The position numbers and the translations under genes were made by a program. The notes under the pieces were generated by a model that did no database searches, had not been told where the DNA came from, and worked only from the letters and a program-made list of their open reading frames with translations. A stretch of 53,227 nucleotides of DNA, taken from NCBI GenBank assembly GCA_014161675.1, contig GCA_014161675.1_4760.2; one strand, 5' to 3'. Of the stretch, positions 1 to 4,213 are shown in pieces. Every line of letters begins with the position of its first letter. Within the stretch, counting starts at the first letter, position 1. Source of the DNA: a phage.

Positions 1-293
1 GTTTCGGATATAGACAATTTTTTAGATATTCGTTTACCTTTACATTGTTTATGAGAACATCTTGTTCCTTTACTTACAAATTTATCTATCGAACATATCC
101 ATTCATGACCATGTTCGCAGATAAGTTTTATTTTTGTTTTGTTTCCTTCCCATTCCCCAACAAAGCCGACAAAAACTAAATTTTCTGTTTTACATATTTC
201 TAAAATTTTACCATAAAAATCTGTTGGGCTTTTCGCTCTACAATTATGTTTCTCCTTAGTCCATTCAATTTCATGCGCTTGACGTACTAACAT
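1..293 (-). CDS. Partial CDS (3' end runs off window): Cys/His-rich hypothetical protein downstream of gene 32
   Basis: Minus-strand ORF absent from the supplied track because it has no stop inside the window. ATG at 291-293 is preceded by GGAGGAT. Translation begins MLVRQAHEIEWTKEKHNCRAKSPTDF and contains ICEHGHEWICSIDKFVSKGTRCSHKQC, a zinc-ribbon-like Cys/His spacing. Confidence 0.35.
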   Translation of the reverse strand, partial: MLVRQAHEIEWTKEKHNCRAKSPTDFYGKILEICKTENLVFVGFVGEWEGNKTKIKLICEHGHEWICSIDKFVSKGTRCSHKQCKGKRISKKLSISE

Positions 294-374
294 ATTTTTA
301 TCCTCCATTGTTTCGATGTGTGCATTATACATTACCACATAAGCATGTCAACACCTTTTCATAAAATTTTAGGC

Positions 375-402
375 AATAAAAAAGCCTCCCCGGAGGGAGG
401 CT
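375..402 (-). terminator. Rho-independent terminator after gene 32
   Basis: Minus strand reads AGCCTCCC-TCCG-GGGAGGCT followed by TTTTTTATT, immediately downstream of the gene 32 stop at 413. Confidence 0.8.
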
Positions 403-412
403 GTAAAATTCA

Positions 413-1387
413 TTACATACCTAACAGAGCGTCAAGATCATCCAGATCAGAAGCGGAGGAAGTACCGCCACCCAGGTCCAGAGATGCCATCAGGTCATCA
501 GCGGAAGAATCTAACGCCGTGCTAGCTGCGTTAATACCAACTACAGTGCTAGCTGCGGTAGTACCAGCGTCGAATGCATTCATCTGTGCGTCAAAATCGT
601 CAAGCTGGCTGTTAATCGCTGCCGCAGCACTGGAAGCCGCAGCACCAGCTACCATAGACACGCCCATAGTTTTCTTAAATTTGGTTTCCAGTTCGTCAAA
701 CGGTTTAAACTGGCTAGGCGCTACAATCTCACTCAGATCAACCATGTTTTCCATCAGATATTTCTGATATGCTTCGTCTTCAATTTTCGGAAGCTGTGAT
801 TGCTGCATGAAACGAGAATCATCATAGTTCTGGTGTTTATCAACCTTCTTAGCTTTCAGGAGGAAGTTAGCACCGGAGAACACACAAGTTACATCTACCG
901 GAACTTCGCCCATATCGGTATTCACGTTCACCATTGCAACGATCTTATCATAAATTTTCTGACCGAAGCGGAATTTGAATACCTTACCTTCATTTTCTGG
1001 TGCTTGAGGATCTTTCAGTACCAGAATATTTGCGTAGTAAGAGGCTTTACGCTTAATCAGTTGCCATTCGGTTTTATCGGTATTGTACAGGTCTTTTTCG
1101 TTAATATATTTGCACACAGGGCAAGAATCAAAATCACCGTGGGTGCTGGAGCAGTTTTCCCAATACCATTTGCCATTAACTTTGAAGGAATGGTTTACCA
1201 GTTTCACAATCGGCAGACCGTCTTCTGTCTTAGACGGCAGGAAGCGAATCAGGGCTTCACCGTTACCTGCTGCATCAGTCTTAATCTTCCACTCTTTCGG
1301 ATCTTCTTTGGAGAAACCGTTGCCACCTTTCAGTGCGGCCAGTTGAGCTTGCAGTTTGGAAGAATCTTGGCGTTTAAACATATTCAC
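413..1387 (-). CDS. 32: Single-stranded DNA-binding protein gp32
   Basis: 324 aa; recalled T4 gp32 similarity across the core ([38 protein letters not shown]) and an acidic Ala/Ser/Asp-rich C-terminal tail. Confidence 0.95.
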
Positions 1388-1417: not shown

Positions 1418-1445
1418 ATTATACAGATTTAAATTTACTTGTCAA
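1418..1445 (-). promoter_or_regulatory. Sigma70-type promoter upstream of gene 32
   Basis: Minus strand TTGACA (1440-1445), 16-bp spacer, TATAAT (1418-1423); followed by an AU-rich leader and the gene 32 start codon. Confidence 0.5.
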
Positions 1446-2658: not shown

Positions 2659-3255
2659 TTAACCCTCTTTCGTCATTAATTGAAAACCACGTTCAGCTTT
2701 TGAAATTTCGCTAGGACTTAAATCGTCACCAACATATTCTAGCATCATTTCTCGGATAATGTCAAGTGCTTTTTCATCACCTGATTTTAACTCGAACTCA
2801 AGTTCATAGTGAGCCTCTCCCATTCTTTCGCCGACTTTGCAATAATAGAAAGTGTCTTTGCACATTTCCACTATAGCACCCTCAAGGTCAAGTGTCAATG
2901 ACTTGCGGTATGTCATTACTTGCAATAAAGGAACGATAAGGTCGGAGTTTACGCCTAGACTATCAACATAATGATAGAAATCATCCATTGTTGAAACAGT
3001 AATTTCTTCTCGGTTGAAGAGTCCAGATTCACTATCACCTATTTTGACCATGATCAATGATCTATTAACGTCAAGTCGAGCATAAATTCCTTTTCGACGC
3101 AGTGCATGATCTTCGGTATCATAATAAAATTCGTGTTTTAGAGTGTTAGCACGATCTACTAGATTGTATCCGTCATACATTGCTACCCACAAATCACAGA
3201 TTGTTTCGACGCCAATTTGTGAGTGTGCATAGTATTTTAATTCAAGTTCTTTCAT
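2659..3255 (-). CDS. CYTH-domain (triphosphate tunnel metalloenzyme) protein
   Basis: 198 aa carrying CYTH hallmarks in order: N-terminal ExExK (ELELK), EFYYDTED...LRRKG...RLD, NREEITV, TYRKSL, and acidic strand YELEFEL. No gene occupies this dsbA-rnh position in T4. Confidence 0.8.
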   Translation of the reverse strand: MKELELKYYAHSQIGVETICDLWVAMYDGYNLVDRANTLKHEFYYDTEDHALRRKGIYARLDVNRSLIMVKIGDSESGLFNREEITVSTMDDFYHYVDSLGVNSDLIVPLLQVMTYRKSLTLDLEGAIVEMCKDTFYYCKVGERMGEAHYELEFELKSGDEKALDIIREMMLEYVGDDLSPSEISKAERGFQLMTKEG

Positions 3256-3265
3256 ATATCAACCC

Positions 3266-4213
3266 TTAGAACTCACCAATTTTCTGCAACATTTTAACTA
3301 ACGCATTTGTTACAAAATAGTTATAAATTTTACCGCGTGGTGCTGGTTTAGATTTCTCCCATGCTAACAAAATTTCATATTCGATGTTATCAGGAATAAA
3401 TTCAAAATCAATAAGTTCGCGGTTTTCGTCAAAGCGTCGTGCTTCTTCCTCTGTCATCAAATACTTTGGATCTTCGGCATCGAAAATTTGCTCTAACCAT
3501 TTGGTTGCAATTGGTTTAGCTCGTTCTCCTTCCAGTCGTGAGATAATGAAATCACTACGGCACTTGATCGAAGCTACACCGTCTTTTGCGTCACCCTTAA
3601 CACATTTTACCATAAGGTCTTTGTAAGGGCTACCATATTTGCATTTCTTCCATGCTTTCTGTACTGGTGCCCACTGTTTCACATTTTTGTATTTGTGCAA
3701 CTGTGTGTAGTCACCATCGCCGGAGTTGATTAGCACCTGGCGACCTTCTACAGAAAACTTTTTAGTTAATACAGCGATTATATCATCCGCTTCAACTTTG
3801 TCAACCTTAATAACGTGATAAGGCATGTTCTCTTTAAACTCTTCGGTGATCTTATTGATCGCAGCAAAGATCATCTCCCAATCACGCGGATCTGCGTCTC
3901 GTTTTTCCTTACGGTTGCGTTTATAGTAAGGTGCGATATCACGTCGCCAGTAACCTTTGCTTGAATCAAAGGCAAGTACCGTAATTGGGTATTGCTCTTT
4001 GAATTTTGTCATATTATAACGCATGGTGTCAAGAATAAGATGACGGATCATGCCTTCACTAATAGGATCTTCCGGTTTAAAGGTATGCGAGATAGTAGCA
4101 ATCATAAGCTGCGACATATCAATCAAATGCACACCTTCCGGTAGTTTATCTTCTGGATCATCGAAGAAATCATTAAGTGTAGCGGTAGTTTTTGTAAACG
4201 GGTTATACGTCAT
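3266..4213 (-). CDS. rnh: RNase H (5'-3' exonuclease / flap endonuclease)
   Basis: 315 aa; recalled T4 RNase H similarity (GYWRRD, YYKRNR, MPYHVIKVDKVEADDIIAVL, SGDGDYTQLHKYKNVKQW, PPRGKIYNYF). Confidence 0.9.
   Translation of the reverse strand: MTYNPFTKTTATLNDFFDDPEDKLPEGVHLIDMSQLMIATISHTFKPEDPISEGMIRHLILDTMRYNMTKFKEQYPITVLAFDSSKGYWRRDIAPYYKRNRKEKRDADPRDWEMIFAAINKITEEFKENMPYHVIKVDKVEADDIIAVLTKKFSVEGRQVLINSGDGDYTQLHKYKNVKQWAPVQKAWKKCKYGSPYKDLMVKCVKGDAKDGVASIKCRSDFIISRLEGERAKPIATKWLEQIFDAEDPKYLMTEEEARRFDENRELIDFEFIPDNIEYEILLAWEKSKPAPRGKIYNYFVTNALVKMLQKIGEF

Follow-up and report, generated by a model that had tools for sequence, protein, structure and literature searches.

A truncated gene downstream of gene 32 in an RB49-like phage as the probable 5' part of a CapR-repeat/T5orf172 homing-endonuclease-type gene

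The first 293 positions of a 53,227-nucleotide stretch of phage DNA (GenBank assembly GCA_014161675.1, contig GCA_014161675.1_4760.2; the whole stretch is called the window here) carry on the minus strand an incomplete open reading frame (ORF) downstream of gene 32. With a probability of roughly 0.8, we regard this ORF as the N-terminal quarter of a homing-endonuclease-type gene that is free-standing and belongs to the class combining CapR repeats with a T5orf172-type nuclease domain. This assignment is based on a CapR repeat in the visible fragment, on nearly identical full-length genes in related phages, and on the patchy presence of the gene between gene 32 and frd.

The open reading frame at 1-293 and its CapR repeat

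Translation of the minus strand from an ATG at 293-291 proceeds through 97 sense codons without a stop before the window edge and gives MLVRQAHEIEW...ICEHGHEWIC...CSHKQCKGKRISKKLSISE, and a ribosome-binding site, GGAGGA (301-306, minus strand), lies 7 nucleotides upstream of the ATG. The remaining five frames of this region contain many stops, and at 31% G+C a frame of 97 open codons has a chance probability of about 8e-5 (2 of 20,000 shuffled sequences stayed open). An earlier note made from the letters alone had described a minus-strand ORF starting at 293 with a strong ribosome-binding site, lying downstream of gene 32 and running off the window, and all of this was confirmed, gene 32 being located at 413-1387 on the same strand. 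As also stated there, the ORF is absent from the program-made ORF list, because its frame runs off the window. Based on the translation, orthologue identity and a match of the fragment to phrog_681 ("endonuclease", E=1e-12), positions 1-293 represent codons 1-97 of about 404, comprising a leader and the first of four CapR repeats.

Residues 31-79 of the fragment (nucleotides 57-203) matched the CapR homology domain PF21817 with 40.2 bits against a gathering cut-off of 24.2 (E=4e-10). Using the boundaries of a hidden Markov model of the repeat, the first CapR-type unit extends from residue 22 to 90 (24-230, minus strand) and is preceded by a conserved N-terminal leader of 20 residues. In an alignment of 39 units, i.e., the window unit and 38 others, C59, C79, and C84 occupy the sole invariant columns, and in most units a His follows the first Cys at a distance of three or four residues (C+3 or C+4) as putative fourth ligand, which is H63 (C+4) in the window. 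The pairs C59/H63 and C79/C84 fit the two-pair pattern of metal ligands in CapR, with about 20-26 residues in between, the first pair being a variant with His in place of the second Cys. Thus, C59 (117-119), H63 (105-107), C79 (57-59), and C84 (42-44) are the predicted zinc ligands of this unit (42-119, minus strand). One peculiarity concerns the second knuckle of this repeat (42-59, minus strand), which reads C-S-H-K-Q-C and has a C-x4-C instead of the general C-x2-C spacing. This two-residue expansion was found in this allele alone within the 39-unit alignment, and the odd knuckle may bind metal, possibly through H81.

An AlphaFold model of the first repeat unit (predicted local distance difference test, pLDDT, 87.7) displayed a helix-sheet-helix domain larger than a zinc ribbon, for which no match was found among solved structures. 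These results refine the description of the product as zinc-ribbon-like in the earlier note. The Cys/His motif (ICEHGHEWIC...CSHKQC) is indeed present, with C59, H63, C79, and C84 at conserved positions, but C67, which had been counted as part of it, is not conserved. Likewise, a zinc-finger type is retained, but a ribbon is probably not the best description in view of the modelled fold and of a match of the full-length orthologue to DUF4379, a "probable treble clef zinc finger" and its second Pfam match. The domain is named after CapR, the capsid-operon repressor of the Vibrio cholerae PLE satellite, which has been described as a domesticated DNA-binding domain of a homing endonuclease and whose four conserved cysteines are needed for DNA binding, as shown for Cys-to-Ser mutants in electrophoretic mobility shift assays (PMC8096241). 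Taken together, the sequence features support the view of the fragment as a putative DNA-binding module of the zinc-finger type.

The full-length gene and its putative nuclease domain in orthologues

The nuclease domain lies beyond the window, and all statements on it rest on orthologues. Among GenBank phages, only FL04, FL37, and PTE-Eco09 matched the whole of 1-293, with about 99% identity, and in all three the gene is labelled "hypothetical protein". The same gene was detected in the same place in assembly GCA_958303905.1. All four genomes with this allele possess an intact frame of 404 amino acids, so that the ORF is not broken soon past the edge in the closest relatives, an interruption that the earlier note had named as speaking against its proposal. 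The first 97 residues of the FL04 protein are identical to the window fragment, and the P0001 protein shares 96 of 97 residues. A word-indexed protein search with the 97-residue query returned nothing, while the same search with the full-length orthologue returned 124 relatives, and the negative result of the short query is therefore untrustworthy.

In the orthologue, four tandem CapR units of about 67 amino acids each were identified (residues 22-89, 96-161, 162-226, and 227-292), yielding a PF21817 score of 114.8 bits over four stretches; the window unit shares 53-60% identity with units 2 and 3. The C-terminal 120 residues or so form a separate domain that is conserved family-wide (about 200 bits in about 35 clusters). 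An alignment of 38 sequences of this domain revealed invariant K32, R43, E73, G95, and E98 and near-invariant Y18, G34, I35, K77, T97, and T99. In protein numbering, this corresponds to a T5orf172/MUG113 signature consisting of Y301, K315-x-G317, R326, E356, and G378-x-T-E381, in which R326 and E356 (R43 and E73 of the alignment) are the candidate catalytic Arg and Glu by analogy with E180 of Odn, the origin-directed nuclease of phage ICP1, and E75 of I-TevI.

On its own, the domain at the C-terminus of this allele scored 17.5 bits for MUG113 and 17.3 bits for T5orf172, i.e., below the gathering cut-offs of 22.3 and 20 (families PF10544 and PF13455). Across the 38 homologous domains, MUG113 was matched by 18 (best 1e-9), T5orf172 by 12 (best 5e-8), and GIY-YIG by two, and phmmer linked the domain of this allele to such matching family domains with values up to 1e-60. 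Its structural model is confident, with the GIY-YIG core fold (beta-beta-alpha-beta-alpha) present and SLX1 GIY-YIG nucleases as the best structural matches. Based on the family Pfam matches, the invariant Arg and Glu, and this model, we judge the domain to belong to the T5orf172/MUG113 branch of the GIY-YIG superfamily. The suggestion of a nuclease-associated zinc-finger protein, made from the fragment, thereby holds, since the CapR repeats are fused to a GIY-YIG-superfamily domain in the full-length orthologues. Of the profile searches proposed along with it, the one for GIY-YIG pointed to the superfamily, by matches among the homologous C-terminal domains, but canonical GIY-YIG (PF01541) had no match in the orthologue and HNH families were absent from the Pfam matches of both fragment and orthologue.

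The gene 32-frd slot and the competing explanations

Positions 1-1400 of the window matched 66 phage records, nearly all of them Krischvirus, i.e., RB49/JSE-like T4-type coliphages, the genus to which the window belongs, and the allele described here occurs in three of these records. In JSE, FL20, KMB43, LF73P4, and PHB13, the slot is empty and the promoter directly drives an ORF of 109 amino acids; many phages have one or two additional ORFs of about 110 amino acids there; and in about 30 records, it contains a CapR/T5orf172 gene, including ORF239c of RB49 (485 amino acids) and a gene of 542 amino acids in Delraymugoa. When alleles were compared, the first 13 or so and the last 110 or so codons were about 90% identical at the DNA level, and the repeat arrays varied from 2 to 6 units with about 50% protein identity, invisible to megablast. 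Homologues of the nuclease domain were found in 254 phage records with Escherichia, Vibrio, Salmonella, Aeromonas, Klebsiella, and other hosts, and no paralogue of the gene was found in the window. Sporadic presence together with intact empty sites among close relatives is a distribution of the homing-endonuclease type, and this patchy pattern supports the assignment as a free-standing homing endonuclease gene.

Some further observations were made on this slot and its relatives. The RB49 records disagree: AY343333.1 and NC_005066.1 harbor the 485-amino-acid ORF239c in the slot, whereas in OZ035808.1 ("Krischvirus RB49") the slot aligns in two pieces without an endonuclease gene, and this record is absent from the listed DNA matches to the nuclease domain, which points to either a difference between stocks or a labelling issue. 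The T5p137 protein of phage T5 (L005, 1045-1857; 270 amino acids) is 39% identical to the nuclease domain and is annotated as "similar to phage RB49 RB49p240 protein". The gene order of the window is the truncated ORF, 32, 59, 33, dsbA, an unnamed ORF, and rnh on the minus strand, followed by 34 on the plus strand.

In regard to its flanks, the ORF is preceded by signals known from other loci of these phages. Gene 32, coding for the single-stranded DNA-binding protein (413-1387, minus strand; ORF list and annotated orthologues in FL04, JSE, and RB49), is the upstream neighbour and lies outside the element. An intrinsic terminator, AGCCTCCC-TCCG-GGGAGGCT with a T-run (377-402, minus strand), is located just past its stop codon, its hairpin (402-383) showing an 8-bp G/C stem and a predicted RNA fold of -17.9 kcal/mol (z = -3.7). 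It is followed by a sigma-70-type early promoter, TTGACA-N16-TATAAT, with 12 of 12 consensus positions (324-351, minus strand). Thus, positions 324-402 present a G/C stem-loop, an AT-rich tract, and a consensus early promoter, which is the layout of a PeSL (promoter-early plus stem-loop), with all elements located intergenically beside a variable ORF and with a sequence conserved in JSE, FL04, and Delraymugoa. Such PeSLs were defined for RB49, Phi1, and JSE, where cassette recombination shuffles ORFs and excises mini-circles (PMC2839356). Apart from that, a second perfect promoter (12 of 12) was detected just upstream of gene 32 (1418-1445, minus strand), and the start of gene 32 is placed at a GTG at 1387 in the ORF list and at an ATG at 1381 (322 amino acids) in the annotation of relatives.

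The promoter-leader module spans 308-351 (minus strand), and its core, GTATAATGCACACATCGAAACAA (308-330, minus strand), occurs once in the window, once in JSE (L003, 4020-4042), twice in Delraymugoa (L002, 2382-2404 and 4054-4076), and three times in FL04 (L001, 2664-2686, 3047-3069, and 4308-4330), with 0 copies expected by chance. Every copy directly precedes a slot ORF. In FL04 and Delraymugoa, the downstream copy starts within the coding sequence of the endonuclease, whose final codons (K-E-L-T-A-stop) are AAA GAG TTG ACA GCG TAA, and the codons for L-T provide the -35 hexamer of the next promoter (FL04 L001, 3079-3096; Delraymugoa L002, about 2414-2431). Since the last codons of the endonuclease form the -35 of the downstream promoter, the cassette restores transcription of the gene that it displaces. 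Restored transcription of a neighbour is a common trait of the free-standing endonuclease genes of T4. The C-terminal peptide ...FEKELTA is kept across alleles, perhaps owing to this overlap with the promoter.

If the ORF is indeed a homing-endonuclease-type gene, its protein would be made early in infection from the consensus early promoter and the strong ribosome-binding site directly past the gene 32 terminator. A long DNA site would be bound by the array of zinc-finger repeats, in which every repeat depends on its Cys/His ligands, and the C-terminal domain would cut nearby DNA via its conserved Arg and Glu. When a carrier and a related phage without the gene infect the same cell, a cut in the genome of the latter would be followed by recombinational repair templated by that of the former. 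The cassette would thereby be copied into the gene-less genome, with homology provided by gene 32 plus PeSL at one end and by the downstream ORF together with the duplicated promoter-leader module at the other. The replacement promoter of the cassette would then keep the downstream neighbour from being silenced after insertion.

A mismatch profile against five relatives offers a candidate place for the target of the endonuclease, namely window 294-493, which comprises the PeSL together with the gene 32 3' end, where the acidic C-terminal tail of gp32 is encoded. Here, 9-14 mismatches per 200 nucleotides were counted against most relatives; over the remainder of gene 32 (494-1293), the figure was 0-6. 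A genome that shares the allele likewise has 13 differences within 294-493, and no allele-linked co-conversion tract was evident in the five-genome profile. Separately, a mosaic region was noticed at about 2700-3500, covering the start of rnh and an ORF at 2659-3255 that has a weak CYTH-like match in a relative. It is JSE-like, with 0-4 mismatches per 200 nucleotides, and differs at up to 40 positions per 200 nucleotides from FL04, Delraymugoa, and the related assembly, though FL04 is nonetheless the closest relative around gene 32.

The three states of the slot and the repeated modules fit PeSL-type cassette shuffling, so that gain and loss of the gene by homologous recombination between flanking modules, with the protein uninvolved in its own spread, is a possible, if tentative, explanation. 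The PeSL layout at 324-402 and the identical module before each slot ORF speak in its favor, as do the 42 of 53 identical bases that flank the gene in FL04 and the PeSL-mediated excision of mini-circles, which was demonstrated experimentally in RB49 and Phi1 (PMC2839356). On the other hand, such recombination leaves a conserved nuclease with a DNA-binding array unexplained as cargo, and the downstream module lacks a stem-loop, since its promoter overlaps the last codons of the gene. Moreover, it is compatible with homing, as a break made by the endonuclease could simply stimulate it.

We consider it unlikely that the gene is a domesticated relative of homing endonucleases, acting either as a nuclease against competitors or satellites, like Odn, or as a DNA-binding regulator, like CapR. 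Both kinds are documented for this domain family (PMC8096241; PMC8263062), and Barth et al. pointed out that bioinformatics alone cannot decide between homing and non-homing for such a gene (PMC10448857). About half of the genus has a member in the slot, and it is driven by a strong early promoter; a nuclease domain of about 90% nucleotide identity beside diverging arrays would fit selection for changing targets. Against this, no PADLOC defence family was matched, and several phages, near-identical in other respects, have nothing in the slot; the gene is therefore dispensable. A pure repressor role is further opposed by the invariance of the catalytic-type residues.

That the gene in this particular genome is a decaying or truncated remnant, interrupted past the edge or catalytically dead, appears improbable. 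Homing endonuclease genes commonly decay after fixation, as stated in PMC13405050, only 97 codons are visible, and the knuckle in repeat 1 is non-canonical; however, the same 97 residues are found in FL04, where the gene is intact, all four genomes with the allele have the 404-amino-acid frame, and the orthologue has the catalytic-type residues.

A homing endonuclease of the seg family (canonical GIY-YIG at the N-terminus) or of the HNH type, the former suggested by the earlier note from analogy with T4, can hardly be upheld despite the GIY-YIG-superfamily affinity of the C-terminal domain and a match of the protein to phrog_559 ("HNH endonuclease"), as the domain order is reversed with respect to Seg, the phrog_559 match is confined to the zinc-finger repeats (residues 37-223), PF01541 and HNH Pfam matches are lacking, and T4 SegG sits on the other side of gene 32, between 59 and 32. 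Seg-family identity is thereby refuted by the domain architecture, with CapR repeats at the N-terminus and a T5orf172-type domain at the C-terminus, and an HNH endonuclease was likewise rejected.

Returning to the homing-endonuclease-type gene, its alleles allow a further proposal, which we put forward as a rather doubtful one. A near-constant nuclease and promoter combined at this single locus with 2-6 diverged CapR repeats might constitute a natural modular DNA-recognition system, in which shuffling of repeats retargets the nuclease. Each repeat of about 67 residues could read a few base pairs, with a logic like that of zinc-finger or TALE arrays. If this were true, a recognition code could be worked out by setting alleles against the sites that they cleave.

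Relation to known systems

The gene is an uncharacterised member of a class described in 2023, at an RB49-lineage locus discussed neither in PMC10448857 nor in PMC2839356. Its recognition does not change the current understanding and will not surprise a specialist. It does provide a correct annotation, in that a "hypothetical protein", which from the window alone could be mistaken for a small zinc-binding protein, becomes the head of a CapR-repeat/T5orf172 endonuclease gene. It also carries a class known best from Vibrio phage ICP1 over to the RB49-like coliphages, of which several serve in phage therapy, and singles out the junction between gene 32 and frd as a cassette-exchange hot spot. With the same nuclease joined to different arrays and with natural empty sites, these phages offer a convenient system for studying homing and how tandem CapR fingers specify their targets.

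The PeSL cassettes of RB49, Phi1, and JSE (Arbiol et al. 2010, PMC2839356) have the same stem-loop, AT-rich tract, and promoter upstream, and there, too, the variable ORFs of a hyperplastic slot lie between repeated promoter modules; the gene 32-frd locus is not mentioned in that work. Their cargo typically consists of small ORFans, whereas here it is a 404-amino-acid endonuclease with a downstream module devoid of a stem-loop.

The Seg endonucleases and I-TevI are likewise encoded by GIY-YIG-superfamily genes in T4-type phages, the former free-standing and the latter intron-borne. SegG also adjoins gene 32, and I-TevI also has a small zinc finger. In both, however, a canonical GIY-YIG domain is N-terminal, as opposed to the C-terminal T5orf172-type domain here, and the T4 counterpart of the slot between 32 and frd holds frd.3, frd.2, and frd.1.

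Odn (ICP1 gp88) shares the type of nuclease domain with its conserved Arg and Glu; it cleaves DNA in vitro, and mutating the Glu aligned with the catalytic Glu of I-TevI abolishes cleavage (Barth et al. 2021, PMC8263062). It differs in being an anti-satellite weapon with a RepA_N DNA-binding domain and no CapR repeats. CapR, conversely, has the DNA-binding domain and the spacing of metal-ligand pairs in common with our fragment, but is a single-domain repressor without nuclease, while the protein here has four repeats and, in the orthologues, a nuclease domain. In addition, the first knuckle is mostly C-x3-H here and C-x2-C in CapR.

The closest likeness is to the phage homing endonucleases in which several CapR/DUF723/DUF4379 zinc fingers, forming "beads-on-a-string" DNA-binding regions, are combined with T5orf172 (Barth, Dunham & Seed 2023, PMC10448857). 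As in gp174, gp165, gp121, and others of ICP1 and in Vibrio phage Helene, N-terminal CapR-type repeats are followed by a C-terminal T5orf172/MUG113 domain, and the genes are free-standing beside an essential gene, vary in repeat number, and are patchily distributed among close relatives. In contrast, the gene described here belongs to an RB49-like coliphage, a lineage not mentioned in the text or the accessible supplements of PMC10448857, and stands out by the C-x4-C second knuckle in repeat 1 of this allele and by a cassette with an embedded promoter for the downstream gene.
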